From a phage: 40,608 nt of DNA. The position numbers were made by a program, and so were the translations under genes. The notes under the pieces were generated by a model. It did not search any database, was not told the DNA's origin, and was given only the letters and a program-made list of their open reading frames with translations. The stretch lies in the sequence record OZ370878.1. One strand, given 5' to 3'. Positions 1 to 40,608 of this stretch are shown here, piece after piece; position 1 is the first letter of the stretch; every line of letters begins with the position of its first letter.

Positions 1-137
1 GTAACACCCAAAGACAAACCCAAGGGTCATCCCCAACCCTTAGGGAACCCTCAAGGTCAACCGAAGGTTGACTTTAGGTGATTGGCTGGGCTTTAGGTAC
101 CCCCTATGGGGGAACTTTAGGTCCGTACACTGTGAGA
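1..137. repeat. Partial copy of T7 160-bp terminal repeat (reverse complement, bases 24-160)
   Basis: Identical to 40319..40455; matches remembered T7 terminal repeat sequence. Confidence 0.9.
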
Positions 138-376
138 TAGTCACTCAGATTTTTATGGTATATTTTAAAGGACCCTATAGGAACTCCATAGGCCCTCTCT
201 AAGACCCTCTTTAGGTGACACTGATAGGATGGCCTATCTTTAGGTATAGACCTTAGGATAGACCATTAGAGGCTCTTTATGGGTATACCTTAGGACTTGA
301 CTCTATAGGGATGAAGTGGTGTGATGCAATCATACCGCTGAATCCCTCGGTGAGCCATCAGTCGGTCAGGAAGACC

Positions 377-680: not shown

Positions 681-703
681 TCTCCCTATAGTGAGTCGTA
701 TTA
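681..703 (-). promoter_or_regulatory. T7 RNAP promoter phiOR
   Basis: Reverse complement of TAATACGACTCACTATAGGGAGA. Confidence 0.9.
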
Positions 704-2545: not shown

Positions 2546-2566
2546 ATTGCCTCCTTACTTGATTTC

Positions 2567-2998: not shown

Positions 2999-3039
2999 AA
3001 TGCCTCCCGTTAACTTTCAGATTTCACGTAGGAGCATCT

Positions 3040-3095
3040 CGTATAGACAATGACATCCATAAAGACCACTATCTGTAGTGGCCTTGAGTATATCA
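3040..3095 (-). promoter_or_regulatory. RNase III processing site R18.5
   Basis: Hairpin motif ACTCAAGGCCACT...GTGGTCTTTATGGATG shared with other T7 R sites. Confidence 0.55.
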
Positions 3096-3362: not shown

Positions 3363-3367
3363 ACATA

Positions 3368-3571: not shown

Positions 3572-3629
3572 CTTGTACCTCCTTGAGAGTCCATCCGTGG
3601 ACTACACGTCTTTCCTTGTGATTTACCAA

Positions 3630-5291: not shown

Positions 5292-5343
5292 TTGACCTCC
5301 TTAAAGTAAATCTAAGAGACTACAGGGAGAAGATTATTTCGCC

Positions 5344-5366
5344 TCTCCCTATAGTGAGTCGTATTA
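5344..5366 (-). promoter_or_regulatory. T7 RNAP promoter phi17
   Basis: Reverse complement of TAATACGACTCACTATAGGGAGA; overlaps gene 16 stop. Confidence 0.9.
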
Positions 5367-9320: not shown

Positions 9321-9346
9321 TTAGGGCCTCCTTATGTAGCCTTTAG

Positions 9347-11590: not shown

Positions 11591-11596
11591 AGCTCA

Positions 11597-12187
11597 TTAC
11601 CTCCCCGTCTTGGTTCCTTTAGCGGCAACAATAGGTGCCTTAGTTGTGGACTTAGAGTCGAACGCACCGGATGCGTAAGCACTCGCAGCGGAAGACCCCA
11701 TGATAGCCAGTGGGTCCAGAACCATCTGTAGCTTACTCTTCTGTTTCTGTTCGCTCTTATAGATTTCGTCAATCTGACTTGCAGCACTTTGAGTACCACC
11801 AAGTTGCTGTGCGAAGATTGCTTGGTAGTCACGGCGATAGTTCTCAGTTACCATATTGGCTTCCCGAATGAACTGTCCTTCTGTGACTCGCTTAATGCGG
11901 TCCATTGAGGAACCTTCAAGCATACTCTCTCCGATAGCCGCTCGGATAGACCCAATAGCTTGGACCTTCTGCATGTTCTGTGAGGTCAACTCGGCGGACG
12001 CTTCCTCAAGTTTACTTCGAGCTTGCAACGATAGGTCAGCATTCTGGATGTTCGTCTGCCTCATGATTTCCATAGCTTGACGACGACCAGCAGCGGTCTG
12101 AGCGGCAATCATTTTGGCCTGAGCGTTCTGACCACTGATAGCCTGAGCGCCAGATATAGCGATAGGTATTGCGGCTGCCCAACACAT
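11597..12187 (-). CDS. 14: T7 gp14 internal virion protein B
   Basis: 196 aa from MCWAAAIPIAISG...; ORF-track start trimmed. Confidence 0.92.
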   Translation of the reverse strand: MCWAAAIPIAISGAQAISGQNAQAKMIAAQTAAGRRQAMEIMRQTNIQNADLSLQARSKLEEASAELTSQNMQKVQAIGSIRAAIGESMLEGSSMDRIKRVTEGQFIREANMVTENYRRDYQAIFAQQLGGTQSAASQIDEIYKSEQKQKSKLQMVLDPLAIMGSSAASAYASGAFDSKSTTKAPIVAAKGTKTGR

Positions 12188-12191
12188 ATGG

Positions 12192-12608
12192 TTATCCTCC
12201 TTTCGTGATTGTAAATAACTGAAATTGACCATCTCGTGTGTACTCTTCATGGAATACCGCACCGATAGTCTTGAGGAAACGAATGTGGGACGTATTGCCT
12301 ACCCATACGTAATTCCAAAGAGTATCATACTTCTCAAGCATCTTATCGCGATACTCCATGATTAACTTACGGAACTTTCGCTTAGCCTTTCCACTAAGTC
12401 GCCACACTTGGTCGCTCGTAACGAACCAGCACTGGTCCCCGCAGTTACCACCGATAGCTAGAGGGAACCCATAGAGACTCAACGTGACACACTCGGAAGC
12501 ATCAGGGAAACTCGGCTCAATACCAGCAGCCTTAGCTTCAAGAATGTCATGGTGAGCCGGAGTGAATACCTCAAAGTCTGTACTTTTAGTAGGTCTTATA
12601 GTCATCAT
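12192..12608 (-). CDS. 13: T7 gp13 internal virion/assembly protein
   Basis: 138-aa ORF; matches T7 gp13. Confidence 0.92.
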   Translation of the reverse strand: MMTIRPTKSTDFEVFTPAHHDILEAKAAGIEPSFPDASECVTLSLYGFPLAIGGNCGDQCWFVTSDQVWRLSGKAKRKFRKLIMEYRDKMLEKYDTLWNYVWVGNTSHIRFLKTIGAVFHEEYTRDGQFQLFTITKGG

Positions 12609-12635
12609 AAGAAAACCCTCCCGTAGTCGTATTGT

Positions 12636-12658
12636 TCTCCCTATAGTGAGTCGTATTA
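12636..12658 (-). promoter_or_regulatory. T7 RNAP promoter phi13
   Basis: Reverse complement of TAATACGACTCACTATAGGGAGA. Confidence 0.9.
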
Positions 12659-12688
12659 ATTTCGAGCCACCACAGGGAGAATATTTAA

Positions 12689-15073
12689 TTAAATACCGGA
12701 ACTTCTCCGTAAGTAGTTACCTTCCCAGCCACACCCAATGATGTTCAGAGGGGTAGTCTCATCTGACAAGATGTATACAGTGTTGAACTTGGCGTTACCA
12801 ACCACAGGGAATCGATATTGTCCGGTCCCTAAGTTCAGTCTCCCAGCCCTCAGAGTGTTAGAGCCTAATCGGGCACCAGCCATTGTGTACTTCCAGTTAG
12901 ACGATTGGTTCTCAACATAAATGTCAAACGTACCAGAGTTCTCGTAGTTAACCCACGCTCGGCGTAACTGTAAGCGCCCAATGTCTTCCGTGGAGGTAGA
13001 CCCGTCGTCGGCAGTCTGCTTGATGAGGAACTTAGAGAACTCATATACGAAGTTAATGTTGAACCCAATGTACACCATGCGTCCCTCCAAGTTACCGCTG
13101 AGTCTCAGCCAAGGGTCGCTATTCCACCCAGCCGTAGGTTGCTCAAACACGGTTATCTTACCATCAGGCTCCAATACAGTAATTTTGCCCCTCCCGAAGT
13201 TTGCACCATAAATTGTTGGAATATGAATAGAGGTAGTGAATGTGTCATCGTTGTATGTTCCACTAGGAATCGTGTATCGAATCTTCATGTCCATAAAGGC
13301 ACGATAGGGTTCTCCCTGTAAGTCAATGGCGTTCTTAGTGAAAGAGATTCTAGCTAGGAACGTATTGAACTCATTGCGAAGAATCACATACATATCTGAG
13401 CTGATACTCTGACAAGCTAGAACCTGTACGTTTTCCCCAAAGTCCCAATGAGACCACGACTGTTGCCTTAACTCTTCGTTCAGGTACGGGAATTTGTACA
13501 TGAAGATTTTACTAGGGTCCCCGTGAGATAGTACCGAACAGAAGTTTTCCGTACCACTTCCGCAAATACTGAACACACCATTAGGGATGTAGTTAGGAAC
13601 GTGTGATGTAATGTCCTCAGCATTCTTAACGGAACTGACATCCTGCACAGCGTAGTACCTGTGGATGGACGTGAAGCTGGACCTCGGACTAGCAAAGTAG
13701 ACATTACGCCCAATCCCAAAAGGTCTCGCTCGGTCCTGTACGTCAAACTGGGTCGTTAGGTTCAACTCAACCGACTTAGATGTGAGAGTACCCGAGGCAG
13801 TCAGGACGAATTGTGCTTCATCGGACCAGATGAGTAACTCTTCTGAGAACGGAACGGCGTACTTAAGGATTGCTATTCGGTTGGTACTCACAGCTACGTC
13901 TATAGGGTCGTCATCACTAAGGTTCGCAATGGACGCAGGGTAGAAGTTGAAGTATTTGGCTGTACGACTCAATATGATGTTCTCCCCACTAAGGAATCCT
14001 AAGCGGTTACGGAAGAAGAACACATCGTTAATACTTGAACCAACAAAAGAAGGCCAAGGGTTGGTGTCAACGTCACCACAAGACTTAGGAGACCACTCAA
14101 GCCACTTGAAGTCGAAATTACCGTCAGCGGCTCGCACAAGAGCGTGTGGCATGGTTTCCCATAGAACTTGGTCCTCAGTGTTCCAACCTAAAGTCTCAGT
14201 CCAAACTTTCCGCTCAGCGTCATACCGAACGTAATACTGGTCGGCAGACTTAGAGGCGTCCCCTACGATTTTCACCATGTAGCCGTTAGGAGCATTAGGT
14301 GGCAGCTTAGAGAACGACTGAGCGTAGTGGGTCACAGGGTTAATCAACTGGTCTGCGTAGCCATCTTTAGTCGTGAAGGAGTCAATCTGTTGACCACTAG
14401 GTGCGGTCACATGGATGAACCCTTGCCCTACATTTACAGTCCAATCAGACAAGTTAGTGCGCATCTGCTTGGCTAACTCTTCAGCTAACCATTGGGCATC
14501 CGTATTGTTTACGTGTTCAGGTTGACTACCATCTGGTATCTTATACTTCGCAACGTCTTTACCGTTAATGTGTACAATTAGTTCCCTACCATACTGACCA
14601 CCACGAACGTTAATCAATCCGTCTTGATTAGGGTTGTAATTCGGTAAGTTGACAGACTTTGTGTTCTTCTGTGCAACAACGTTACGGTTAACGATGAACG
14701 TATAGTCTGCTACAGTAACCATTCGCAGGTCGTTACGTGGATTAGCGGTCTTGATGTAGTTGGAACCGTTAGGATACCTAACTTGCTTCTCGTTACCAGA
14801 AAGGTCGAACACTCGGATTCCGCTACCAGTGAACACAGCGTAATACTGTTCGTGCTCATCTCGGTTAATCAGGTGGATGTACGGAGCTTGACCTAACGCA
14901 CCGTTGTCTCCAAGTGTATTTAAGAAAACAAGAGGTGGACGCTTTTGGAGGCCCTCGGTCTCCGAAGACCAACCGTTAACTTGGCGTGACCCTTGGTCTG
15001 GATAACGAAGGATGTCAGGCTGTTGGCTGATACCACCCTTCAAGTTCTTGATTGATTGGCTAATGAGTGCCAT
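12689..15073 (-). CDS. 12: T7 gp12 tail tubular protein B
   Basis: 794-aa ORF; matches T7 gp12. Confidence 0.95.
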   Translation of the reverse strand: MALISQSIKNLKGGISQQPDILRYPDQGSRQVNGWSSETEGLQKRPPLVFLNTLGDNGALGQAPYIHLINRDEHEQYYAVFTGSGIRVFDLSGNEKQVRYPNGSNYIKTANPRNDLRMVTVADYTFIVNRNVVAQKNTKSVNLPNYNPNQDGLINVRGGQYGRELIVHINGKDVAKYKIPDGSQPEHVNNTDAQWLAEELAKQMRTNLSDWTVNVGQGFIHVTAPSGQQIDSFTTKDGYADQLINPVTHYAQSFSKLPPNAPNGYMVKIVGDASKSADQYYVRYDAERKVWTETLGWNTEDQVLWETMPHALVRAADGNFDFKWLEWSPKSCGDVDTNPWPSFVGSSINDVFFFRNRLGFLSGENIILSRTAKYFNFYPASIANLSDDDPIDVAVSTNRIAILKYAVPFSEELLIWSDEAQFVLTASGTLTSKSVELNLTTQFDVQDRARPFGIGRNVYFASPRSSFTSIHRYYAVQDVSSVKNAEDITSHVPNYIPNGVFSICGSGTENFCSVLSHGDPSKIFMYKFPYLNEELRQQSWSHWDFGENVQVLACQSISSDMYVILRNEFNTFLARISFTKNAIDLQGEPYRAFMDMKIRYTIPSGTYNDDTFTTSIHIPTIYGANFGRGKITVLEPDGKITVFEQPTAGWNSDPWLRLSGNLEGRMVYIGFNINFVYEFSKFLIKQTADDGSTSTEDIGRLQLRRAWVNYENSGTFDIYVENQSSNWKYTMAGARLGSNTLRAGRLNLGTGQYRFPVVGNAKFNTVYILSDETTPLNIIGCGWEGNYLRRSSGI

Positions 15074-15096
15074 TAGAGCCTCCTTATTTATTAATG

Positions 15097-15687
15097 TTAG
15101 CGAGTCAGTAGACCAGAAGTGAACGCATCTCCATCCAGCATATTGTACCCACCGTAGTCCATCTCATACTCCATGCAGAGACGTCTAGCCTCATCTTCCT
15201 CTTCTTGGAGTACACCCTCTACTTCCGGTGCCCCAAAGAATCGGTTGTTGAACTGACGGGAAGCCTTGGTGACAATCCAGTAACGGAAGCACTCAGGCAT
15301 CTCATCGTAGTCGCGGAGACGAATAATGTTCACAGTAATACCAGAGTCAAAGCGGTCTGATTGACTCGTTCGGTCATACACATAGCCACCTCGGTTAACG
15401 TAGATGGATTGACCGGAAGTAGACATTAGGGATAAATAGTCGTCACTGTATACAATCAGGTTGGAGTAAACATCAGGTAGTAGCGTTATGCCTTCCTCAA
15501 TGTTGAACGTCCATCCACGAGATTGAATCTGTCGGTTAATCTTGTTGAGAATACGCCGAGCGTTCGCTGCATCTGCGTTAGCGTCACCTTCCAGCGTTGA
15601 TACCGGAGGTTCACCGATAGACGCCAGAATGTCGTTCACAGCTGATAACTCAGCGGCAGTCTCAACGTTCATATCGTATGAGCGCAT
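15097..15687 (-). CDS. 11: T7 gp11 tail tubular protein A
   Basis: 196-aa ORF; matches T7 gp11. Confidence 0.95.
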
Positions 15688-15702
15688 ATAGTTCCTCCTT
15701 TC

Positions 15703-15752
15703 AGCAAAAAACCCCTCAAGACCCGTTTAGAGGCCCCAAGGGGTTATGCTAG
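15703..15752 (-). terminator. T7 T-phi late terminator
   Basis: Reverse complement of CTAGCATAACCCCTTGGGGCCTCTAAACGGGTCTTGAGGGGTTTTTTG. Confidence 0.92.
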
Positions 15753-15755
15753 TTA

Positions 15756-16453
<698 letters not shown>

Positions 16454-17563
16454 TTATGTAATCCCAGCAGCATTTACGTACTCATGAAGGACCATGTGGT
16501 CACGAGAATTCGGATCCCCGAGCATCACACCTGACTGGAATACGACAGCTCCTGCAGCTTCTGGGCGAAGACCACCGTGGCCCATTGCGTACTTAGCGAT
16601 AATCTGGTCCGCTTGGAAGTTAGCACGGCGAGCGCGCTCCAGAGCCAAGTCACGCAGCTTAACAGTACCTACCGCGGAGCGGTGCATGAACAGGCCGATA
16701 ACGTTGTCCTTAGCAACCTTGACATTACCCTCACCTTTATTGGCAGGGAAGACGTGCTTCTGACCAGTAGTGCCCTCACGAGCGGTACCAGCACCACCAG
16801 CGGTGAGGTGCGGAACTTCTACAACCTCAAAGCCCATAACGTTGCGGATAGAACCCTTCTCAGGGTCAATCAGAGCAGCGTAGTTTGCTGCGTTCGGCAT
16901 CAGTGCTGCCAGAATCGCAGAGTAGCTATCTGGGTCACAGTAGAACACACGGTCAGCAGCCGGAACATAGTTCTTGGTCAGAGCCGCACGAGCCTTAGTC
17001 AGAGCCGCAATAATCTCCTTACCCAGCGCAACTTGGTCGGTAAGTGCGGCCTTGTTCTGAGTGGTCTCAATTACGGTAGCAGTACCTAAGCCCTCGATGT
17101 TCTCATTATATTTGCTTTCCACGTTACACAGACCGGCAATCTCAGCCAGAACCGCACCATCCGCAGCCATCGCCAGAGATTCACCCAACTGAGAGGTATA
17201 CTCAGAGCGAACGTCGTAGTGGTTCATCGCGTCCTCAATATCATAAATCAGAACGTCAGCCGTCAGGAGACCGTCAATGGTGATTACCTTCTCGGTGTGT
17301 TTGATGTCCTTACGTTTATCGTCGAGGTTCTCGCCCGGAGCCAGATACGCTGCCTGAGTGCGACCCAGAACAGGGAACTGAGCGGATTTACCGCTGGAGA
17401 TGGAACGTACCATGTGGCGAGAAGTGGTCACGGAGGTACGAGCGAACGCAGTCAGGACTTCACCGCCAAATACCTTCAAGAACAACGCCAGTTTATCTCC
17501 AGCAGCAACTACACCTTTACCTTGGTTAGTACCCATTTGCTGTCCACCAGTCATGCTAGCCAT
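16454..17563 (-). CDS. 10: T7 major capsid protein gp10 (residues 1-348, read-through form) fused to GFP11 tag
   Basis: 369-aa ORF MASMTGGQQMG...AAGAVVFQSGVMLG-DPNS-RDHMVLHEYVNAAGIT then TAATAA. Confidence 0.97.
   Translation of the reverse strand: MASMTGGQQMGTNQGKGVVAAGDKLALFLKVFGGEVLTAFARTSVTTSRHMVRSISSGKSAQFPVLGRTQAAYLAPGENLDDKRKDIKHTEKVITIDGLLTADVLIYDIEDAMNHYDVRSEYTSQLGESLAMAADGAVLAEIAGLCNVESKYNENIEGLGTATVIETTQNKAALTDQVALGKEIIAALTKARAALTKNYVPAADRVFYCDPDSYSAILAALMPNAANYAALIDPEKGSIRNVMGFEVVEVPHLTAGGAGTAREGTTGQKHVFPANKGEGNVKVAKDNVIGLFMHRSAVGTVKLRDLALERARRANFQADQIIAKYAMGHGGLRPEAAGAVVFQSGVMLGDPNSRDHMVLHEYVNAAGIT
16457..16504 (-). other. GFP11: GFP11 (M3) tag coding segment, 16 codons RDHMVLHEYVNAAGIT
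   Basis: C-terminal 16 aa of the gp10 fusion match the GFP strand-11 complementation peptide. Confidence 0.95.
16505..16516 (-). other. Cloning scar GGATCCGAATTC (BamHI/EcoRI) encoding DPNS linker
   Basis: Adjacent restriction sites directly after gp10 codon 348. Confidence 0.85.
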
Positions 17564-17620
17564 ATGTATATCTCCTTCTTAAAGTTAAACAAAATTATTT
17601 CTAGAGGGAAACCGTTGTGG
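17564..17620 (-). promoter_or_regulatory. Gene 10 leader and ribosome binding site
   Basis: GGGAGACCACAACGGTTTCCCTCTAGAAATAATTTTGTTTAACTTTAAGAAGGAGATATACAT ATG. Confidence 0.9.
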
Positions 17621-17643
17621 TCTCCCTATAGTGAGTCGTATTA
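17621..17643 (-). promoter_or_regulatory. T7 RNAP promoter phi10
   Basis: Reverse complement of TAATACGACTCACTATAGGGAGA. Confidence 0.93.
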
Positions 17644-17656
17644 ATTTCGAAGTCTA

Positions 17657-18580
17657 TCAGAAGTTCGAATCGATTACTTTCTGTTCGACTTGACGACGAT
17701 AGTTGGCATCTGTGCGATACCGAGGGTCACTCATAGCTTTAATCATCTCGCTACGGTCCGCAAAGCCTTCACGCTTGGTAGCCTGAGGTTTAGCCGGAAT
17801 AGCACGATTAGTCACACTACGAGTTGGCTTACGACCGAACGCCTTAGCGCGAGACTCACCAGCCAAGTTGATGATAGCCTTAACGGTCGCTAAGTCACGA
17901 CTGGTCAACGCATTATCCAGCGACTGTGCAGCCTCAGGGTTGTGCGTCTCAAGGTGGTTATACAGTGCATCAAAACGTTCACGACCACCAGCGTACTCAA
18001 TGACACTGTTTACGTACTGCTCCACCAGAGCTTCTTGACCACGGATATACGAGTCAATGAAAGCCTTCGTGTAGCCAATTTCAGCCAGCTTAGCGTAGGA
18101 CTCGGCGGACAACTCTTCGTTCTCCTCGTACTCACGCTGGGTAGCCTCAATGGTCTCGACACTCATGCCACGCTCAGCAGCAATGTTAATCATCTCTTGG
18201 AAGCCCTCTTCGTGCTCACCAAGTTGCTCAGAGGCAGCTACCAGTTCTTCTGGAGTCTCGCCCAGTGGGGTAAACTCTTCGGAACCTTCGGTGCCCTCAA
18301 CGCCTTCTTCTCCAGTGTCCACATCGGTCGGCTCAGAGCCATCACCGATACGAACCTGAATGCGGCCTTCGTCATCCTCTTGACCGAACGGGTCAGAGTT
18401 GTCATACAGGTCACGTTCTGTTTCCACTTCGTCTGACGCTAACTCGATTGCATCATCGCCATCACGGGCAGCAACATCAAGAGCCAGCATGTTCTGCTCA
18501 TGTTCCTCAACGGAACCACCAGACATCACAGCGGAGTTCACGCCAAAAGATGCATATACGTCTGCATTAGATTCAGCCAT
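17657..18580 (-). CDS. 9: T7 gp9 scaffolding protein
   Basis: 307-aa acidic ORF; matches T7 gp9. Confidence 0.95.
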   Translation of the reverse strand: MAESNADVYASFGVNSAVMSGGSVEEHEQNMLALDVAARDGDDAIELASDEVETERDLYDNSDPFGQEDDEGRIQVRIGDGSEPTDVDTGEEGVEGTEGSEEFTPLGETPEELVAASEQLGEHEEGFQEMINIAAERGMSVETIEATQREYEENEELSAESYAKLAEIGYTKAFIDSYIRGQEALVEQYVNSVIEYAGGRERFDALYNHLETHNPEAAQSLDNALTSRDLATVKAIINLAGESRAKAFGRKPTRSVTNRAIPAKPQATKREGFADRSEMIKAMSDPRYRTDANYRRQVEQKVIDSNF

Positions 18581-18659
18581 TATTATTGTCTCCTTAAAGT
18601 TGAACTACAGGAAGACCGAGGACTCCAACCTCTTGTCATCGCTCATTTCAAAGATGAGG

Positions 18660-18682
18660 TCTCCCTATAGTGAGTCGTATTA
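18660..18682 (-). promoter_or_regulatory. T7 RNAP promoter phi9
   Basis: Reverse complement of TAATACGACTCACTATAGGGAGA; overlaps gene 8 stop. Confidence 0.9.
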
Positions 18683-30673: not shown

Positions 30674-31372
30674 TTAGAAGTCTCCGTCTTCGTCTGCTTC
30701 CTCGGACTCTTCGTCGTCTTCGTCCCAGCTTTCTTCGTCGCGTGGTTTGCTCGCTTTGGCAGAACCAGAGGCAACATAGCCGTTCTCTTCAACTTCGTCA
30801 GCCCAATCGTCTTCACCGCCACCAAAGGTAGCCAGTTCGACCAGCATCACGGATTCCAGTTGCAGCTTAACGCTCGCACCTACAGCAGTGTTCCACTTGT
30901 ATGGAACCAGAGAATATTTAACTTTCAGCTTAGAGCCACCACCGATAATCGGAACGTCTTCCATCTTCTTACCTTTTGAGTCAACCACAACCAGATTGAT
31001 GTGCTTGGTCTCTTTGGTCTTCTTGTCTTGGAAAGACGCGTAGCATTTGAACTTAAAGGTAGTCGTACCGTCACCGTTATCGAAGAACGGCATGTCACCC
31101 TCATACGGTTTCAGCGGTTTCTTACCACGAGCTACAGCAGGTGGATTAGCTTCGTATTCCTCAACGGCAGCAGCATAAGCCTCTTCGTGACACTTCACGA
31201 TTTCATCGACCATACGCTGGCAGCGCGGGTCTTTGTTGGGAATAGTCAGGTCAACTTTATAGACACCACGAGGGTTCCCAAAGCCACGCTCTTCGTTGCC
31301 GTAGTCCGGCTTGGCGATGTAAGCGTAAGGTTCAGCGGTACCCAGCGCAGAGGTGAAAATCTTCTTAGCCAT
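30674..31372 (-). CDS. 2.5: T7 gp2.5 ssDNA-binding protein
   Basis: 232-aa ORF with acidic C-terminal tail ending DGDF. Confidence 0.96.
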   Translation of the reverse strand: MAKKIFTSALGTAEPYAYIAKPDYGNEERGFGNPRGVYKVDLTIPNKDPRCQRMVDEIVKCHEEAYAAAVEEYEANPPAVARGKKPLKPYEGDMPFFDNGDGTTTFKFKCYASFQDKKTKETKHINLVVVDSKGKKMEDVPIIGGGSKLKVKYSLVPYKWNTAVGASVKLQLESVMLVELATFGGGEDDWADEVEENGYVASGSAKASKPRDEESWDEDDEESEEADEDGDF

Positions 31373-31415
31373 AATGTTAATCTCCTTTAGGTTTCGTTTG
31401 GTTTCTCAGAGGGAG

Positions 31416-31437
31416 TCTTCCCTAATAGTGAGTCGTA

Positions 31438-31440
<3 letters not shown>
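31416..31440 (-). promoter_or_regulatory. T7 RNAP promoter phi2.5
   Basis: Reverse complement of TAATACGACTCACTATTAGGGAAGA. Confidence 0.85.
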
Positions 31441-31773
<333 letters not shown>

Positions 31774-31781
<8 letters not shown>

Positions 31782-32364
31782 AACATTTATCCTTATGTTT
31801 CTCAAAGAGTTCTTTATAGAAGTCTGCTTTCGCTAGGTCTTTCTCTAAGTACGCTAACTCTGACTTCTTACCAGCACGTAGTCTGTACTTTAAGATGTTA
31901 CCGAAGCAGTATCCCTTGAACTGCTCAACGGTCATTGAACGAGCAATCACTTCGATAGCCTCAATGTCGTCAAACAGCATGTAGTGGGAAGGCTTAGTGA
32001 CACCTTCGATTGTCTCAGCGGAAGGCTGGTCATCTGTAGGAGTTACCTCAGGTTTATTCAGATGTGGTTTACGTGGGTCCATCGCTCGGATTTCACCTAA
32101 GGTTATCTTTTGATCGTTATTTGCGGGGCAGAGGTGGCAAGGGACATTGGAGCAGAGAATACCGCAGCCATTCAAATCATCTGGGCGACCTTCATTATTG
32201 TCTATCAACTTAATGATCATCTCTTGTTCACGTTCGGTCATATCGTTAGCTCCTTTGTTACAGGTGTGTGGATAACGGTCATCTTTCTCTAAGCAAGCTA
32301 TACACCCAGTTGCTTGTACTGGCGGGTTTTCTTTTTCCCAGGCTTCACCATCTAACAGTCCCAT
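31774..32364 (-). CDS. 1.7: T7 gp1.7 nucleotide kinase
   Basis: 196-aa ORF; matches T7 gp1.7. Confidence 0.93.
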
Positions 32365-32624
32365 CAGAACACCTCCTTGATTCGTTTGAGTAACAGACGG
32401 ACGAACGGGAAGCGGGTCACTGCCACACTAAGAACCGGACGTTTCTTGTCTATTGCTTTCTCAAAGTCACCACGGGTGATAATGATGTGGACGCTCGGTG
32501 CCAAAGGAACTGTGTTACCAATAAGAGGTATCTTAGCTCGGCGCTCGCTCGCACATACGATTGAACGGTCAGCACGGCGAACCGTGAAATTCTTAACGCT
32601 TTTGTTGTAATGAAGTCGAAACAT
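32364..32624 (-). CDS. 1.6: T7 gp1.6
   Basis: 86-aa ORF; matches T7 gp1.6. Confidence 0.9.
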
Positions 32625-32629
32625 ATAGT

Positions 32630-32652
32630 GTCTCCTTTAGTGAGTCGTATTA
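32630..32652 (-). promoter_or_regulatory. T7 RNAP promoter phi1.6
   Basis: Reverse complement of TAATACGACTCACTAAAGGAGAC. Confidence 0.85.
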
Positions 32653-32739
32653 AGCGTGACCATCTGGCATATCATCATCGCTACAGTGGAGCGCAAGGCA
32701 TCCTACAATGACGATGAGTAATGGCATTAAGTACATCAT
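32650..32739 (-). CDS. 1.5: T7 gp1.5
   Basis: 29-aa ORF MMYLMPLLIVIVGCLALHCSDDDMPDGHA read by hand. Confidence 0.7.
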   Translation of the reverse strand: MMYLMPLLIVIVGCLALHCSDDDMPDGHA

Positions 32740-32746
32740 GGTGTGT

Positions 32747-32769
32747 ACCTCCTTTAGTGAGTCGTATTA
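32747..32769 (-). promoter_or_regulatory. T7 RNAP promoter phi1.5
   Basis: Reverse complement of TAATACGACTCACTAAAGGAGGT. Confidence 0.85.
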
Positions 32770-32922
32770 CCAGTTAACTATACTCCACACGCAAGCACAC
32801 ACTGCCGCTAAGTAACAAGCGCCAACTACTACTAGTGCTACTTGAGGGTATACCGCAAGAATATACGCAAGCGTCAGGATAGCTGCCAAAGCCGCAAGGA
32901 ATTTACCAACCTTCTTAAACAT
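32767..32922 (-). CDS. 1.4: T7 gp1.4
   Basis: 51 aa from MFKKVGKFLAAL...; start trimmed. Confidence 0.8.
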   Translation of the reverse strand: MFKKVGKFLAALAAILTLAYILAVYPQVALVVVGACYLAAVCACVWSIVNW

Positions 32923-32934
32923 AAAGTGTCTCCT

Positions 32935-32968
32935 TATAAACGCAGAAAGGCCCACCCGAAGGTGAGCC
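32935..32968 (-). terminator. TE, host-RNAP early terminator
   Basis: GGCTCACCTTCGGGTGGGCC hairpin followed by TTTCTGCGTTTAT. Confidence 0.85.
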
Positions 32969-32975
32969 AGTGTGA

Positions 32976-34055
32976 TTACATTTTCTCTTGAGGGTTGTCC
33001 TCGGTGCCACGGAACATTACGAACGATGGGTGCCGCAAAGAGCCATCAGGTGTTTCCTCCATGTAGCTAATTTGACACGCCCAGCCATCGTAAGGGTTAA
33101 TAGTACAAGCATCGTTGTCGCCAATACCGTATGGGCTAAAGAATCCCCATTGACTTAGGGTGGCCTCTTTTACTGTCTCAGTGAACTCATCCATTAAGGC
33201 GCGAGAGATATTCGTGGCGTTAACTAAACGACCACTCTCAAGAAGCACCTCAAAACCAATCACTTTACCTTCATTAGCCAGACCTTTTGTACCCCATACC
33301 AGACCCTGAATGATACCGTCAGCTTCGTTCTCAGGTTTCATTTTCCACCAGCCAGATTTCTTACCGCGCTTATAGATACACATCGGGTCTTTCACAATGA
33401 GACCCTCATGGCCTTCTGCTCGCTTCTGCTCGTACAGTTGCTGTAGTTCTACCATATCGTAGACCTCGTAAGATTCAGCCGCTTGCCATTCGATTTCAGG
33501 GAAGTATTCCTGTAGCAGAGGCAGCATGTTCTTAACGTGTTCCTGCATGAGCAACGTCATGACATCACAGTCTTCTCCAGACTCCACGATGTGCAGCGGG
33601 AGGATAGCGTACAGTTTTATGTGAAGGTGTCCAGTGTGCAGCTTAAAGGGAACTTTATCTTTCTTACGGATTGGTTCAACGAATAACTCTTCATGGAACT
33701 CTTGGTTCTTCGTGTCAGTCCATTTGGTACGCAGTAGGCCGGACCCTGTGTTAAAGTCTACGCCCTTGACCATGAGTTCCCCATCAAGCATAAAGCCATC
33801 TTTGTAGAAGCAACGGTCATCGTTCAGTAGACGCTTCCAGCGAACATCAAACCCGTTTAAGTGCTCCAGTGCCGGAATCGTTTTAGATACACGAGAGAGC
33901 CAGTAACTGTTAGCAGTATTGTCTACGCAGATGTTCCCGCGTACACCATCGTACTTGATTTCAGCGATAAGATACCCAGCGTTATCCAGAGCCTTCTTAA
34001 TGGCAGACTCTACGAAAGACACGGCTTTAAACGGGTTAGTCTTAATGTTCATCAT
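32976..34055 (-). CDS. 1.3: T7 gp1.3 ATP-dependent DNA ligase
   Basis: 359-aa ORF with adenylation motif KYDGVRG. Confidence 0.96.
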   Translation of the reverse strand: MMNIKTNPFKAVSFVESAIKKALDNAGYLIAEIKYDGVRGNICVDNTANSYWLSRVSKTIPALEHLNGFDVRWKRLLNDDRCFYKDGFMLDGELMVKGVDFNTGSGLLRTKWTDTKNQEFHEELFVEPIRKKDKVPFKLHTGHLHIKLYAILPLHIVESGEDCDVMTLLMQEHVKNMLPLLQEYFPEIEWQAAESYEVYDMVELQQLYEQKRAEGHEGLIVKDPMCIYKRGKKSGWWKMKPENEADGIIQGLVWGTKGLANEGKVIGFEVLLESGRLVNATNISRALMDEFTETVKEATLSQWGFFSPYGIGDNDACTINPYDGWACQISYMEETPDGSLRHPSFVMFRGTEDNPQEKM

Positions 34056-34077
34056 AATGTTTATCTCCTATTGGTTA

Positions 34078-34115
34078 AATGACTAAGGCCACTCCTAGAG
34101 AGCGACCTTAAGCAT
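34078..34115 (-). promoter_or_regulatory. RNase III site R1.3
   Basis: CTTAAGGTCGCTCTCTAGGAGTGGCCTTAGTC hairpin motif. Confidence 0.5.
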
Positions 34116-34138
34116 TGTCCCTATACTGAGTCGTATTA
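34116..34138 (-). promoter_or_regulatory. T7 RNAP promoter phi1.3
   Basis: Reverse complement of TAATACGACTCAGTATAGGGACA. Confidence 0.85.
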
Positions 34139-34393
34139 CTTCCAGTCCTTCAACTGGTCATACATATGGTTCAACCAATCAGTACACATATTGAACAGAA
34201 CGTCCTCGTCGTGGTGGTAGAAGGTGCTAGTATCAATCAGGTTTCCACTCCTGTCCTCAATACGTAACCGTATGCAATCTTTTCTTGTATAGGCATCATA
34301 CCAGTCATCATAAATGACCGCTAAGTCTAACTGGAACAGCTTGTTTGTTGCTGCCTTGAATGCTGCCAGATTACCACTATATAAACGTCCCAT
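34136..34393 (-). CDS. 1.2: T7 gp1.2 inhibitor of host dGTPase
   Basis: 85 aa from MGRLYSGNLAAF...; start trimmed. Confidence 0.9.
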   Translation of the reverse strand: MGRLYSGNLAAFKAATNKLFQLDLAVIYDDWYDAYTRKDCIRLRIEDRSGNLIDTSTFYHHDEDVLFNMCTDWLNHMYDQLKDWK

Positions 34394-34394
34394 C

Positions 34395-34523
34395 TTACTG
34401 ACCCTCCCAGCTACGCTTGTGAGAGCGGTCACGCTTAGTCTTATTCAACTTGCGACCTTTGGTTGCCTCGAAGTCACGAGCATTACGGTTAGAACGTTTG
34501 GTCATCTTTTCGAAGTTACGCAT
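34395..34523 (-). CDS. 1.1: T7 gp1.1
   Basis: 42-aa basic ORF MRNFEKMTKRSNRNARDF... read by hand. Confidence 0.8.
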   Translation of the reverse strand: MRNFEKMTKRSNRNARDFEATKGRKLNKTKRDRSHKRSWEGQ

Positions 34524-34526
34524 ACT

Positions 34527-34600
34527 TAAAGTCCTCTCTTAGTAATTCTTTAATTTAAATCTCTAATTAACACTTAAGGGTCTTAAAGTTAAACCTTAAG
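34527..34600 (-). other. AT-rich primary replication origin region between phi1.1 and gene 1.1
   Basis: AT-rich tract TTAAGGTTTAACTTTAAGACCCTTAAGTGTTAATTAGAGATTTAAATTAAAG downstream of the phi1.1 promoter. Confidence 0.5.
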
Positions 34601-34627
34601 GTTCTCCTATAGTGAGTCGTATTGATT
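34601..34627 (-). promoter_or_regulatory. Single hybrid T7 RNAP promoter phi1.1A/phi1.1B
   Basis: CGCCAAATCAATACGACTCACTATAGGAGAACCTTAAGG: phi1.1A upstream flank joined to phi1.1B downstream flank. Confidence 0.8.
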
Positions 34628-34632
34628 TGGCG

Positions 34633-37284
34633 TTACGCGAACGCGAAGTCCGACTCTAAGATGTCACGGAGGTTCAAGTTACCTTTAGCCGGAAGTGCTG
34701 GCATTTTGTCCAATTGAGACTCGTGCAACTGGTCAGCGAACTGGTCGTAGAAATCAGCCAGTACATCACAAGACTCATATGTGTCAACCATAGTTTCGCG
34801 CACTGCTTTGAACAGGTTCGCAGCGTCAGCCGGAATGGTACCGAAGGAGTCGTGAATCAGTGCAAAAGATTCGATTCCGTACTTCTCGTGTGCCCACACT
34901 ACAGTCTTACGAAGGTGGCTACCGTCTTGGCTGTGTACAAAGTTAGGAGCGATACCAGACTCCTGTTTGTGTGCATCAATCTCGCTATCTTTGTTGGTGT
35001 TAATGGTAGGCTGTAAGCGGAACTGACCGAGGAACATCAGGTTCAAGCGCGTCTGAATAGGCTTCTTGTATTCCTGCCACACAGGGAAACCATCAGGAGT
35101 TACCCAATGCACAGCGCAACGCTTGCGAAGAATCTCTCCAGTCTTCTTATCTTTGACCTCAGCAGCCAGCAGCTTAGCAGCAGACTTAAGCCAGTTCATT
35201 GCTTCAACCGCAGCTACCACCGTCACGCTCACAGATTCCCAAATCAGCTTAGCCATGTATCCAGCAGCCTGATTCGGCTGAGTGAACATCAGACCCTTGC
35301 CGGAATCAATAGCTGGCTGAATGGTATCTTCCAGCACTTGTTGACGGAAGCCGAACTCTTTGGACCCGTAAGCCAGCGTCATGACTGAACGCTTAGTCAC
35401 ACTGCGAGTAACACCGTAAGCCAGCCATTGACCAGCCAGTGCCTTAGTGCCCAGCTTGACTTTCTCAGAGATTTCACCAGTGTTCTCATCGGTCACGGTA
35501 ACTACTTCGTTATCGGTCCCATTGATTGCGTCTGCTTGTAGAATCTCGTTGACTTTCTTAGCAACAATCCCGTAGATGTCCTGAACGGTTTCACTAGGAA
35601 GCAAGTTAACCGCGCGACCACCTACCTCATCTCGGAGCATCGCGGAGAAGTGCTGGATGCCAGAGCAAGACCCGTCAAACGCCAGCGGAAGGGAGCAGTT
35701 ATAGCTCAGGCCGTGGTGCTGTACCCCAGCGTACTCAAAGCAGAACGCAAGGAAGCAGAACGGAGAATCTTGCTCAGCCCACCAAGTGTTCTCCAGTGGA
35801 GACTTAGCGCAAGCCATGATGTTCTCGTGGTTTTCCTCAATGAACTTGATGCGCTCAGGGAACGGAACCTTATCGACACCCGCACAGTTTGCACCGTGGA
35901 TTTTCAGCCAGTAGTAACCTTCCTTACCGATTGGTTTACCTTTCGCCAGCGTAAGCAGTCCTTTGGTCATATCGTTACCTTGCGGGTTGAACACTGACAC
36001 AGCGTAAACACGACCGCGCCAGTCCATGTTGTAAGGGAACCAGATGGCCTTATGGTTAGCAAACTTATTGGCTTGCTCAAGCATGAACTCAAGGCTGATA
36101 CGGCGAGACTTGCGAGCCTTGTCCTTGCGGTACACAGCAGCGGCAGCACGTTTCCACGCGGTGAGAGCCTCAGGATTCATGTCGATGTCTTCCGGTTTCA
36201 TCGGGAGTTCTTCACGCTCAATCGCAGGGATGTCCTCGACCGGACAATGCTTCCACTTGGTGATTACGTTGGCGACCGCTAGGACTTTCTTGTTGATTTT
36301 CCATGCGGTGTTTTGCGCAATGTTAATCGCTTTGTACACCTCAGGCATGTAAACGTCTTCGTAGCGCATCAGTGCTTTCTTACTGTGAGTACGCACCAGC
36401 GCCAGAGGACGACGACCGTTAGCCCAATAGCCACCACCAGTAATGCCAGTCCACGGCTTAGGAGGAACTACGCAAGGTTGGAACATCGGAGAGATGCCAG
36501 CCAGCGCACCTGCACGGGTTGCGATAGCCTCAGCGTATTCAGGTGCGAGTTCGATAGTCTCAGAGTCTTGACCTACTACGCCAGCATTTTGGCGGTGTAA
36601 GCTAACCATTCCGGTTGACTCAATGAGCATCTCGATGCAGCGTACTCCTACATGAATAGAGTCTTCCTTATGCCACGAAGACCACGCCTCGCCACCGAGT
36701 AGACCCTTAGAGAGCATGTCAGCCTCGACAACTTGCATAAATGCTTTCTTGTAGACGTGCCCTACGCGCTTGTTGAGTTGTTCCTCAACGTTTTTCTTGA
36801 AGTGCTTAGCTTCAAGGTCACGGATACGACCGAAGCGAGCCTCGTCCTCAATGGCCCGACCGATTGCGCTTGCTACAGCCTGAACGGTTGTATTGTCAGC
36901 ACTGGTTAGGCAAGCCAGAGTGGTCTTAATGGTGATGTACGCTACGGCTTCCGGCTTGATTTCTTGCAGGAACTGGAAGGCTGTCGGGCGCTTGCCGCGC
37001 TTAGCTTTCACTTCCTCAAACCAGTCGTTGATGCGTGCAATCATCTTAGGGAGTAGGGTAGTGATGAGAGGCTTGGCGGCAGCGTTATCCGCAACCTCAC
37101 CAGCTTTAAGTTGACGCTCAAACATCTTGCGGAAGCGTGCTTCACCCATCTCGTAAGACTCATGCTCAAGGGCCAACTGTTCGCGAGCTAAACGCTCACC
37201 GTAATGGTCAGCCAGAGTGTTGAACGGGATAGCAGCCAGTTCGATGTCAGAGAAGTCGTTCTTAGCGATGTTAATCGTGTTCAT
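34633..37284 (-). CDS. 1: T7 RNA polymerase gp1
   Basis: 883-aa ORF MNTINIAKNDFSDIELAAIPF...ESDFAFA. Confidence 0.98.
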   Translation of the reverse strand: MNTINIAKNDFSDIELAAIPFNTLADHYGERLAREQLALEHESYEMGEARFRKMFERQLKAGEVADNAAAKPLITTLLPKMIARINDWFEEVKAKRGKRPTAFQFLQEIKPEAVAYITIKTTLACLTSADNTTVQAVASAIGRAIEDEARFGRIRDLEAKHFKKNVEEQLNKRVGHVYKKAFMQVVEADMLSKGLLGGEAWSSWHKEDSIHVGVRCIEMLIESTGMVSLHRQNAGVVGQDSETIELAPEYAEAIATRAGALAGISPMFQPCVVPPKPWTGITGGGYWANGRRPLALVRTHSKKALMRYEDVYMPEVYKAINIAQNTAWKINKKVLAVANVITKWKHCPVEDIPAIEREELPMKPEDIDMNPEALTAWKRAAAAVYRKDKARKSRRISLEFMLEQANKFANHKAIWFPYNMDWRGRVYAVSVFNPQGNDMTKGLLTLAKGKPIGKEGYYWLKIHGANCAGVDKVPFPERIKFIEENHENIMACAKSPLENTWWAEQDSPFCFLAFCFEYAGVQHHGLSYNCSLPLAFDGSCSGIQHFSAMLRDEVGGRAVNLLPSETVQDIYGIVAKKVNEILQADAINGTDNEVVTVTDENTGEISEKVKLGTKALAGQWLAYGVTRSVTKRSVMTLAYGSKEFGFRQQVLEDTIQPAIDSGKGLMFTQPNQAAGYMAKLIWESVSVTVVAAVEAMNWLKSAAKLLAAEVKDKKTGEILRKRCAVHWVTPDGFPVWQEYKKPIQTRLNLMFLGQFRLQPTINTNKDSEIDAHKQESGIAPNFVHSQDGSHLRKTVVWAHEKYGIESFALIHDSFGTIPADAANLFKAVRETMVDTYESCDVLADFYDQFADQLHESQLDKMPALPAKGNLNLRDILESDFAFA

Positions 37285-37299
37285 TTAGTGCCTCTTCCA

Positions 37300-37352
37300 G
37301 TTAGTAAATCGTACCTATTCAGGCCACCCGCAGATGACCTGTAAGATAAGAC
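37300..37352 (-). promoter_or_regulatory. RNase III site R1 upstream of gene 1
   Basis: GTCATCTGCGGGTGGCCTGAATAGGTACGATTTACTAAC hairpin region. Confidence 0.5.
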
Positions 37353-37354
37353 TA

Positions 37355-38434
37355 TCAGCCCATTAACATTGCGTCAAGTTGCTTATCAATGTTGAGCGTA
37401 AGACCATTAGCGATAGCCATCCGGTCAGCATTACGCCAGTGCAGCGCGATTCGTTCCTCAAGCGCCTTAAAGTCCCCAGAGAACATGTTGACCCAGAGCA
37501 TAGCGTTATTGGTTCTTCCTAGTACATCTACAGCTACCTCATGGTTACGCCATTCTTGACGTTCAGCCCATCGCCACGCAGCAAGCATTCTTTCGCGCTT
37601 AGCTTTGTGTGCTTTACGTGCCTTGCGGTTGCGACGTTTGAATCTGCGTGCCTCTAAGCGCCCCTCGTGACGTTCTTTACGGGCCTTAGCGCGGTCAATT
37701 TCTTTCTGTCGTGCGACTTCCTCGACTTCCTTGATGAGTTCCTCAGGGTCGATGCTGAATGCGCCACCGTCTTTCTTCTGCGAGAATGATACCGGGTCGG
37801 TGATGTATGGTACGTCTCCATTTGAGAACATGATGTTCCCGCTATGCATGTCGAATGAGGCGATGCCCTCAAAGAACTTGCGGATTAGTTTACAAGTTTC
37901 AACAAACTCACCATCCCATCCAGTTAACTCATCATGCTCATCCGAATTGCAATCAATGATGTCGCTTGCAATCTCAGCGTATTTATAATGGGCATCATTG
38001 TTGAAACGCTCGCAATCCTTAAGTGCGTCAAGTACCACCGTATAGCATCCAGCGTGGCGCTGTACATCGTAGACGTTAGGGATACCAGGACGACCCTGAT
38101 ACATGCGGCAGAATGCGGTATAGGCTGCGCCTGAATCCTCTTTCTTAAAGCCCACCTTAATCACTCTGTTAGGTAGCAGCGGGTGACTATAAGCAGCCGA
38201 GAAGTGACCATTACCGAGCATCTTGAACCCTGCGTCAGCCGTGAGACACTTCAAGGTAGTCCACCAATCTTGATGCTCAAGTGCCTGATTTAGTTCGGTT
38301 AGCTCGCCATCACACGTCTCGCTGTTGACCATCTCGACCAGTAAGTCGATAAGCATACCTTGACGCTTGTCAAGTTCACAGATTGGCAGTGCTTTGATTG
38401 CGTCGATAGCGTTCATGATGTCGGTAATGTTCAT
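37355..38434 (-). CDS. 0.7: T7 gp0.7 protein kinase / host transcription shutoff
   Basis: 359-aa ORF; matches T7 gp0.7. Confidence 0.95.
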
Positions 38435-38658
38435 TGCATTGTGTCCTTTATGTTCGTTATGAGATAGCGTTCAGTGTGTTGGCTAGTGCCTGTTCAAGTG
38501 CGGCGAGTTTCTTGGCTTTAACCTTTTCCTTTCGTCTATGCCACGCCGCCCTCTCTTGTTCCTTGCGGCGTTCGAGGTTGTTCTCTCGCCAAGTTCTCAC
38601 TATTCGCCGATTTGCAGCGTATAGTGTGCCATTGGGCATATAACCTTTCTTTAAGCCA

Positions 38659-38820
38659 TCAGTGCGTTCTGTCATAGCCGGAACCTATCTTGTTAATCTT
38701 GCGGTTAATGCGGAGTTCACGCTTAAGGCGTTCGATTCGTTGTTTCATTGCGAACCCATCAGGTGTACATACGGTTGCCCCGTTGGACGTGTGGATTGGC
38801 ATAACGTAGTGCTTCATCAT
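38659..38820 (-). CDS. 0.6A: T7 gp0.6A
   Basis: 53 aa from MMKHYVMPIHTSNG...; start trimmed. Confidence 0.8.
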   Translation of the reverse strand: MMKHYVMPIHTSNGATVCTPDGFAMKQRIERLKRELRINRKINKIGSGYDRTH

Positions 38821-38960
38821 TTGCGTAGTGCCCCTTTGATGATTCCTATGATGATGCAAGCGGTAAAGTAGGAACCTACAGCTACACCTAAAGCCTTCCC
38901 AAAGGATGCACCTACAGCTAGACCTAGAGCGGTGAGTAGACCGATAGTAAGCATATACAT
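38817..38960 (-). CDS. 0.5: T7 gp0.5
   Basis: 47 aa from MYMLTIGLLTALGL...; start trimmed. Confidence 0.8.
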   Translation of the reverse strand: MYMLTIGLLTALGLAVGASFGKALGVAVGSYFTACIIIGIIKGALRK

Positions 38961-38971
38961 TACTCCCTCAT

Positions 38972-39022
38972 AAGTAAAGTGATAATCATAAAGGCCACTC
39001 GCTAGGAGCGACCTTGAGTCTA
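38972..39022 (-). promoter_or_regulatory. RNase III site R0.5
   Basis: CTCAAGGTCGCTCCTAGCGAGTGGCCTTTATGATTATCAC. Confidence 0.5.
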
Positions 39023-39178
39023 TCACTCAGCAGATTCTAAAGCTATTGCCTTGTTGTTTTCGTACAGTTCTTTGAGCTGTGCCATTGCGAGTGACCAGTT
39101 AAAGCCACAGCGCACCATGTCGCTATAGAAAAGTACAGTTTGAGCGGTCAGACCGTATTGCACGTTGGTAGTAGACAT
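39023..39178 (-). CDS. 0.4: T7 gp0.4
   Basis: 51-aa [21 protein letters not shown]... read by hand; ATG overlaps gene 0.3 stop. Confidence 0.8.
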   Translation of the reverse strand: MSTTNVQYGLTAQTVLFYSDMVRCGFNWSLAMAQLKELYENNKAIALESAE

Positions 39179-39531
39179 TACTCTTCATCCTCCTCGTACT
39201 CCTCGACTTCCTCCAAGTATTCATTGAGCAAGTCTTCTGCGTCTTCCCAGAGGTCAATCGTTAATTGCTCATAGATACGCGCTTGCAGGATGCGGATTAC
39301 GTCCTTGGTGTCAGGCATCAGACCAGAGTCTTCGAACTCAAGGTCAATGCCCTCACTTACCATTACGCTAAAGATGTCAGCGTAGTAGTGCGGAACTGCA
39401 TTATCGGCAGCCATGTGAATAGCATCGTGCAGGTCATCAGTGTCACGGATGTCATCATAACGGATGTTTTCTTTCAGCATTTCGTAAGCGTGGTCGAAAA
39501 CGTTGTTGTAAGTCATGTTAGACATAGCCAT
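39178..39531 (-). CDS. 0.3: T7 gp0.3 Ocr anti-restriction DNA mimic
   Basis: 117-aa highly acidic ORF ending [11 protein letters not shown]. Confidence 0.96.
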
Positions 39532-39555
39532 CTTGTGTTACCTCGTGCAGTTATT

Positions 39556-39600
39556 AGTGAATATCATAAAGGGCACCTTGCGATACCCTTGAGTTATCCG
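39556..39600 (-). promoter_or_regulatory. RNase III site R0.3
   Basis: CTCAAGGGTATCGCAAGGTGCCCTTTATGATATTCAC. Confidence 0.5.
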
Positions 39601-39705
39601 CTAGTCATGCACTCAAGAGCTATTTACCAGATTGTTAAAGAGCGTCTTAGGTCAGGTTTCGTTAGACCGCATCACCTTTCAGTGTGGTGACTCACTGTCG
39701 TTTCA

Positions 39706-39742
39706 TGTGGTACATCGTACCGTGTTTACTTCATGTTGTCAA
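39706..39742 (-). promoter_or_regulatory. Host sigma70 early promoter A3
   Basis: TTGACA and TACGAT hexamers on minus strand. Confidence 0.65.
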
Positions 39743-39829
39743 CCGTTTTGTTTCACCTTATGTGCCGTGGTGCGCTTAAGTCACCTAGAAGGCACTGTGC
39801 GCCCGGTTGACGCTGCTAGTGTTACCTAG

Positions 39830-39868
39830 CGATTTGTATCTTACTGCATGTTACTTCATGTTGTCAAT
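39830..39868 (-). promoter_or_regulatory. Host sigma70 early promoter A2
   Basis: TTGACA and TAAGAT hexamers on minus strand. Confidence 0.65.
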
Positions 39869-39957
39869 ACCTGTTTTTCGTGCGACTTATCAGGCTGTCT
39901 ACTTATCCGGTTGACCCCGGTGTCGATTGGGATGGCTATTCGCCGTGTCCCTCTCGA

Positions 39958-39994
39958 TGGCTGTAAGTATCCTATAGGTTAGACTTTAAGTCAA
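39958..39994 (-). promoter_or_regulatory. Host sigma70 early promoter A1
   Basis: TTGACT and GATACT hexamers on minus strand. Confidence 0.7.
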
Positions 39995-40045
39995 TACTCT
40001 TTTTGATAAATTTTAAATTAATCTTTTAAGTCTCTTTAAGTTGTC

Positions 40046-40068
40046 TCTCCTTATAGTGAGTTGTATTA
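40046..40068 (-). promoter_or_regulatory. T7 RNAP promoter phiOL
   Basis: Reverse complement of TAATACAACTCACTATAAGGAGA. Confidence 0.85.
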
Positions 40069-40295
40069 ATAAAGACAATGATTAAAGGTTATCACTTTAT
40101 GGCTAACAACAAGGCGTCTTTAGGTCTGGTCTTTATGTAGTGTCTTTAGGTCTGGTCTTTAGGTCTGGTCTTTATGTTTAAACTTTAAGATAGGCGTTGA
40201 CTTGATGGGTCTTTAGGTGTAGGCTTTAGGTGTTGGCTTTAGGATGGACGTTAGGAGGTGACTTTAGGAGGATACTTTAGGAGACTGTAACAGAT

Positions 40296-40455
40296 AGGGA
40301 CACAGAGAGACACTCAAGGTAACACCCAAAGACAAACCCAAGGGTCATCCCCAACCCTTAGGGAACCCTCAAGGTCAACCGAAGGTTGACTTTAGGTGAT
40401 TGGCTGGGCTTTAGGTACCCCCTATGGGGGAACTTTAGGTCCGTACACTGTGAGA
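40296..40455. repeat. Full 160-bp T7 terminal repeat (reverse complement)
   Basis: AGGGACACAGAGAGACACTCAAGG...GGTCCGTACACTGTGAGA; its last 137 bp equal window 1..137. Confidence 0.9.
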
Positions 40456-40608
40456 TAGTCACTCAGATTTTTATGGTATATTTTAAAGGACCCTATAGGA
40501 ACTCCATAGGCCCTCTCTAAGACCCTCTTTAGGTGACACTGATAGGATGGCCTATCTTTAGGTATAGACCTTAGGATAGACCATTAGAGGCTCTTTATGG
40601 GTATACCT
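40456..40608. repeat. Wrap-around duplicate of window 138..290 (right-end unique DNA of the next genome unit)
   Basis: Exact identity of 1..290 with 40319..40608. Confidence 0.9.

Follow-up and report, generated by a model that had tools for sequence, protein, structure and literature searches.

Structure of the genome-unit junction

The analyzed window, 40,608 nucleotides of phage DNA written on one strand, closes on a stretch in which the two extremities of the phage T7 genome meet across a terminal repeat (TR). Read in the T7 orientation, the junction has the native T7 order; promoter phiOR, gene 19.5, a few short repeats of the CCTAAAG type and the TR are followed by a denser array of ~13-bp CCTAAAG repeats and then, according to the NC_001604 annotation, by A0, phiOL and the early promoters. 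The positions of these elements, of the segments aligned to T7, and of the engineered features are collected in Table 1.

The phage is T7 itself, and the window shares 99.9% identity with NC_001604. Megablast searches with the junction and with one internal segment returned T7 at 99.6–100% identity, and in the whole-window alignment to NC_001604 the window lies entirely on the T7 minus strand. Three collinear blocks, at 99.91–99.94% identity, cover T7 except for an engineered replacement and a 75-bp deletion. The repeat finder detected many copies of the T7 RNA polymerase promoter in reverse complement (repeat families D1, D3, and D4), with a phiOR copy at 665–715 belonging to D1 and D4.

Table 1 Features of the window, with the T7 coordinates (NC_001604) or the comparison on which each is based
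Feature	Position in window	Strand	Basis or remark
Redundant contig end, second exact copy of 40319..40608	1..290	.	290/290 identical
Truncated TR copy (TR positions 1-137)	1..137	-	matches T7 137..1 and 39914..39778
T7 right-end unique DNA (39777..39625), with part of the CCTAAAG-type repeats	138..290	-	alignment
Promoter phiOR, upstream of the right end	681..703	-	start site T7 39229 = window 686; NC_001604 annotation, coordinate mapping
Tail-fibre gp17 S541R (AGT>AGA), RdLPS-recognition mutation	3669	-	alignment
T7 39914-24155	1-15760	-	alignment to NC_001604
GFP1-10 ORF, 214 aa	15756..16400	-	matches GFP residues 1-214; terminator Tphi follows
Foreign DNA (755 bp) replacing T7 24014-24154	15761-16515	-	alignment to NC_001604
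Engineered capsid gene: gp10 in the 10B frame (residues 1-348), linker GDPNS, GFP11 tag RDHMVLHEYVNAAGIT	16454..17563	-	sequence comparison
T7 24013-5907	16516-34623	-	alignment to NC_001604
75-bp deletion junction, phi1.1A and phi1.1B merged into one promoter	34607..34623	-	T7 5848 joined to 5923
T7 5848-1	34607-40455	-	alignment to NC_001604
Promoter phiOL, TAATACAACTCACTATAAGGAGA	40046..40068	-	start site T7 405 = window 40051; NC_001604 annotation
~13-bp short-repeat array, CCTAAAG core, just inside the left TR	40116..40283	-	native T7; repeat family D5
Complete 160-bp T7 TR, single, at the unit junction	40296..40455	-	100% to T7 1-160 and 39778-39937
T7 39937-39625	40296-40608	-	alignment to NC_001604, 100%
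T7 right-end unique DNA (39777..39625) adjoining the TR, 153-nt overshoot past the left physical end	40456..40608	-	alignment, 100%

Within the complete TR, T7 nucleotide 1 corresponds to window position 40455, and T7 nucleotide 160, equivalently 39937, to window position 40296. Up to position 40295, the window is the reverse complement of T7 from nucleotide 161 onward, which places left-end T7 DNA on the low-coordinate side of the TR; right-end T7 DNA occupies the high-coordinate side. The arrangement is that of a concatemer junction, with right-end unique DNA, exactly one TR, and left-end unique DNA following each other with no insert. Twenty-mers of the TR fall on two diagonals only, corresponding to the full copy at 40296 and to the truncated copy that projects to a start at position −22, and a 20-mer scan of the window found no inverted TR copy. 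The original prediction, that one full 160-bp repeat joins left-end DNA of one unit to right-end unique DNA of the next, is thus borne out both by the identity of the repeat to its two T7 counterparts and by the T7 alignment on either side of it.

The CCTAAAG heptamer occurs 27 times in the window against 4.9 expected matches, and most of the matches lie at the junction. Arrays of period 13 extend over 40116–40174 and 40211–40283, and the right-end DNA carries the heptamer at 209–215 and 238–244. The resulting clusters (40116–40283; 209–244, also 40527–40562) flank and enter the TR and are a native T7 feature. Alignment and inspection of the junction sequence found no vector, adapter, or scar at the junction, and a search beside the TR for inverted repeats that could mark packaging intermediates yielded only imperfect 10–12-nt pairs, nothing beyond native T7. 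A cloned or vector-borne circular genome was also considered and was rejected because the junction holds no non-T7 sequence.

Duplication of the contig ends

Exact comparison of bases 1–290 with bases 40319–40608 gave 0 mismatches, and 290 nt is the longest prefix of the window that equals its suffix. The repeat finder returned the same pair (family D2; 290 nt, 100% identity, spacing 40318), and an exact match of 290 nt is beyond chance in 40 kb. The length of the genome unit, that is, its unique content, is 40,318 bp. The identity of the two end segments and the unique length had both been predicted; the ends do not differ at any of the 290 positions, and the predicted length, like every coordinate given with it, is correct.

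The edges of the 290-bp block match no physical terminus of T7. Followed in the T7 orientation, the contig starts in right-end DNA, 153 nt ahead of the TR; it crosses the TR once, spans the whole genome, and ends at TR position 137, so that 23 nt are missing up to the right physical end of T7. One contig end thereby falls within the TR, by 23 nt, and the other lies 153 nt past the left physical end.

An exact direct repeat at the two ends of a contig is the signature used by automated completeness tools, and it could be taken to mean that the 290-bp ends are a true direct terminal repeat (DTR) and that the window is the physical genome from end to end. We consider there to be practically no chance of this. 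The genome is that of T7 at 99.9% identity, for which the termini are known and the TR is 160 bp, and the complete TR is internal to the window, with the block starting inside it and ending outside it. Because the boundaries of the block are offset, by the 23 nt and 153 nt given above, from the T7 termini at which terminase cleaves, the notion of a 290-bp DTR of a mature linear genome fails at the very positions that define one, and it was rejected.

Instead, the window has the properties of a circularized or over-extended assembly: i) its ends are identical, with a single genome unit between them and a spacing of 40,318, and ii) the DTR is internal to the contig while the contig ends are not physical termini. 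The 290-bp duplication is contig redundancy, an assembly overshoot, and not a biological repeat. The window is very probably one de novo assembly contig in the reverse-complement orientation, running once round the genome unit and overshooting by 290 bp. The reversed orientation, the permuted start, and the leftover overlap together give it the look of uncurated assembler output. An attempt to name the assembler from the 290-bp overlap length led to no defensible assignment.

Engineered features and source of the DNA

A synthetic split-GFP cassette spans window positions 15756–17563 on the minus strand. In the engineered capsid gene, the slippery GGTTTTC has been recoded to CGTATTC, which fixes the 10B frame, and the gp10B product ends in ...AVVFQSGVML. 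The GDPNS linker corresponds to BamHI/EcoRI, and up to the EcoRI site the sequence is identical to MZ318361, a T7 derivative of the display-vector type; the RDHMVLHEYVNAAGIT peptide after the linker matches strand 11 of GFP. A second copy of the gene-10 leader and ribosome-binding site (RBS), at 16417–16451 (= 17566–17600; repeat family D8), precedes the GFP1-10 gene, and the foreign block comprises these two and the GFP11 linker. In a public-assembly index, the gp10-GFP11 fusion protein was not on record. Queried with the insert, the phage collection returned only unrelated GFP-carrying phages and partial matches to T7 cassettes, no record of it covering the insert, and the plasmid collection returned ordinary GFP plasmids, none of them above 96% identity.

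The leader before GFP1-10 (window 16401–16420, minus strand) reads GATATACCATAGGTGGCACTAGTATG. At 16415–16413 it has ATA where the mCherry cassette of PP384393, from the same laboratory, has the start codon in CCATGG. The first in-frame ATG of GFP1-10 is 22 nt from the Shine-Dalgarno sequence, and an out-of-frame GTG begins an ORF of four codons, the TGA of which overlaps this ATG. Judged from the sequence, the ATA may be either a design choice or a mutation that lowers GFP1-10 expression.

Besides S541R, gene 17 carries two synonymous changes, in codons 543 (window 3663) and 76 (window 5064). The 221-bp segment 3560–3780, which includes S541R and the codon-543 change, is matched at 100% only by the PHEIGES rfaC-selected T7 records PP384396/400/407/408; the codon-76 change is not in PP384400. 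Relative to PP384400, the laboratory backbone, the window has 15 further substitutions, eight of them nonsynonymous (gp0.3 A58V, gp0.7 R295W, RNA polymerase M431V, gp8 C249Y, gp9 I147T, gp12 L529P, gp15 A29S, and gp16 G909S). The substituted sites include window positions 39359, 37552, 35994, 19545, 18141, 13488, 11506, and 6596; at a further one of the 15, position 12723, the window has the NC_001604 base, so that this difference is private to PP384400. The substitutions may have arisen as PCR errors during fragment assembly or by adaptation, either to the rfaC host or to the tagged capsid; remaining errors in the consensus would be another explanation.

At the 75-bp deletion, the two flanking alignments share 17 nt. 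In T7 the tandem promoters are two 23-bp copies, and recombination or slippage between them would produce such a deletion; a collapse of the consensus is also possible. None of the 15 T7 records listed in the database search has the deletion, and all of them match there only in two pieces spanning 306 bp.

Comparison with the published design description indicates that the construct is most likely T7-Split-S* of the Noireaux laboratory (ENA OZ370880), and we regard this as a strong inference. Levrier et al. ('A synthetic cell phage cycle', Nat Commun 2025; PMC12808745) describe T7-Split-S* as built by PHEIGES, with gfp11 fused to the capsid gene 10B, gfp1-10 placed downstream behind a ribosome-binding site, and RdLPS-specific tail fibres bearing S541R. 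The window shows the corresponding sequence features, namely gp10B-GFP11, a GFP1-10 gene placed downstream with its own RBS, and the S541R substitution in gp17, and the PHEIGES rfaC records that alone match its tail-fibre segment at 100% come from this laboratory. The figure legend for T7-Split-S* places the tag at the 'N-terminus' of the capsid gene, whereas GFP11 is C-terminal in the window, in agreement with the 'gp10b-GFP11' of the same paper. T7-Split-S* was sequenced by nanopore and deposited as OZ370880 (PMC12808745; ENA sample ERS27427137). The sequenced DNA came from amplified phage lysates of about 1e11 PFU/mL; the lysate was 0.22-µm filtered, washed by 100-kDa ultrafiltration, and 'pre-treated', and DNase I and RNase A are among the reagents (PMC12808745). 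The PHEIGES paper names an 'Oxford Nanopore Technologies service' for sequencing and Benchling for alignment. Earlier GenBank records from the same laboratory, such as PP384400, are unlike the window in that they have both TRs and the canonical orientation.

The probable use of PHEIGES raises a further source for the junction, in that the end fragments could anneal through the 160-bp TR and form circular or multimeric DNA in which each junction holds one TR, so that the template itself would have been circular or joined in vitro. In PHEIGES, exonuclease III chews back the fragments, which are joined where their homologous ends anneal, and the two terminal fragments would share the 160-bp TR. 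We nevertheless judge such a template highly improbable, as the DNA described in PMC12808745 was prepared from amplified lysates, not from assembly reactions, and the junction contains no vector or scar.

Origin of the single-repeat junction

The T7 alignment, together with the offset of the 290-bp block from the T7 termini, supports the original prediction that the structure is a concatemer junction or a circularized assembly and not a mature linear genome. The HYPPA paper describes a single repeat copy at each concatemer junction and synthesis of the second copy at packaging. As written, the junction is exactly that of replicating T7 concatemers, with one repeat copy between units, the second copy being synthesized when terminase (gp18/gp19) cuts and packages. 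Virion DNA of T7, for its part, is linear with an identical 160-bp direct repeat at both ends, and an assembly passing through the repeat therefore gives a 'circle' with one TR whether virion or replicating DNA was sequenced. Sequence alone cannot separate the concatemer junction from the circularized assembly. In the model that we favor, the wrap would be an assembly product and the sequenced DNA would be virion DNA. The packaged genome is predicted to be 40,318 + 160 = 40,478 bp, 101.4% of the wild-type length, with a TR at each end; its ends are predicted at window positions 40455 (T7 nucleotide 1) and 40296 (right end).

A repeat of 160 bp is shorter than the overlaps that long-read assemblers usually accept (Flye and Canu defaults). 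Long-read-only assemblies of T7-like virion DNA have been reported as linear contigs with both DTRs. Because such assemblies keep both DTRs and because 160 bp is below the overlap limits, a wrap in nanopore data would imply either that some reads truly span the junction or that the pipeline imposes circularity.

The position of the contig end bears on this point. A random cut of a circle would fall inside the 160-bp TR with a chance of 0.4% (a post hoc figure), and the location of the end within the TR is thereby a hint that physical ends shaped the assembly. End loss after adapter trimming has been reported as 3–18 bp, and we place the 23-nt shortfall from the physical end in the range of such reported loss. 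What was assembled may be a linear contig carried too far, as opposed to a cleanly closed circle; the pattern would also fit an assembly that was linear for the most part and gained 153 nt at its left end from a rare junction-spanning read.

Such reads could have come from real molecules, if replicative concatemers or unprocessed head-to-tail DNA survived in the preparation and were bridged by long reads. We regard this as possible but distinctly less likely than a junction created in assembly. The order of the elements is exactly that of the known concatemer junction, and a bridging read would be a natural explanation given that long-read assemblers usually keep both DTRs from mature molecules; the one-sided 153-nt overshoot, with the other end 23 nt short, resembles extension by a rare read, and large free DNA would be retained by 100-kDa ultrafiltration. 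If the provenance is right, however, filtration, washing, and 'pre-treatment' of the lysate, with DNase I among the reagents, should remove unencapsidated DNA, and abundant junction reads would normally give a clean closed circle or a much longer overlap. A more specific proposal is that the nanopore data include genuine molecules spanning a single-TR junction although the virion preparation was nuclease-treated, in which case this engineered T7 of 101.4% length would leave protected, unprocessed concatemer junctions or occasionally mis-terminate packaging ~150 bp beyond the left TR; in our estimation this is improbable.

Whether concatemer reads contributed leaves the structural conclusion unchanged. 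If the T7-Split-S* provenance is right, the DNA would be virion DNA from a washed lysate, which favors an assembly representation over sampled replicative DNA.

Relation to public T7 records

The window agrees with T7 (Teseptimavirus T7; NC_001604/V01146) in a TR that is 100% identical and in a whole genome that is 99.9% identical, and the flanks of the repeat correspond as well, with phiOR, gene 19.5, and short repeats on the right and CCTAAAG repeats, A0, phiOL, and A1–A3 on the left. The two differ in how the genome is written. NC_001604 gives the mature linear form in the conventional orientation with a TR at both ends, whereas the window, written permuted and in reverse complement, contains a single full TR and a 290-bp redundant end and carries the engineered changes.

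Single-TR representations are found elsewhere. A T7 record of 39,778 bp, OZ035731.1, spans the same junction at 100% identity, and GU071091, LR745710, and LC730325 have the same length, corresponding to 39,938 less 160, with one TR omitted. The T7-like genomes YpP-Y, 3A_8767, JB01, and Bas102/103 span the junction too. These public single-TR records are without end redundancy; the window differs in keeping a 290-bp overlap with one end inside the TR. Permuted contigs with a single DTR are described by PhageTerm as well as by HYPPA, and according to the HYPPA paper DTRs are often deleted or positioned mid-contig. The permuted form with one TR is well documented as a convention of assembly.

Taken together, the window is an ordinary way to write down a known genome and contains no new biology; the terminal repeat, the repeats beside it, and a concatemer junction with a single TR all belong to textbook T7 biology, and the construct has been published. 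Automated tools would label the contig 'complete, 290-bp DTR' and assign it a length of 40,608 or 40,318 bp, whereas 40,478 bp is the length expected for the packaged genome. Marking this window as synthetic, on account of the GFP parts, the display-vector linker, and the duplicated gene-10 leader, keeps engineered features from passing as natural novelties. The finding has no bearing on an open biological question, and its value is one of bookkeeping only: the length of the genome, its ends, and the synthetic flag.
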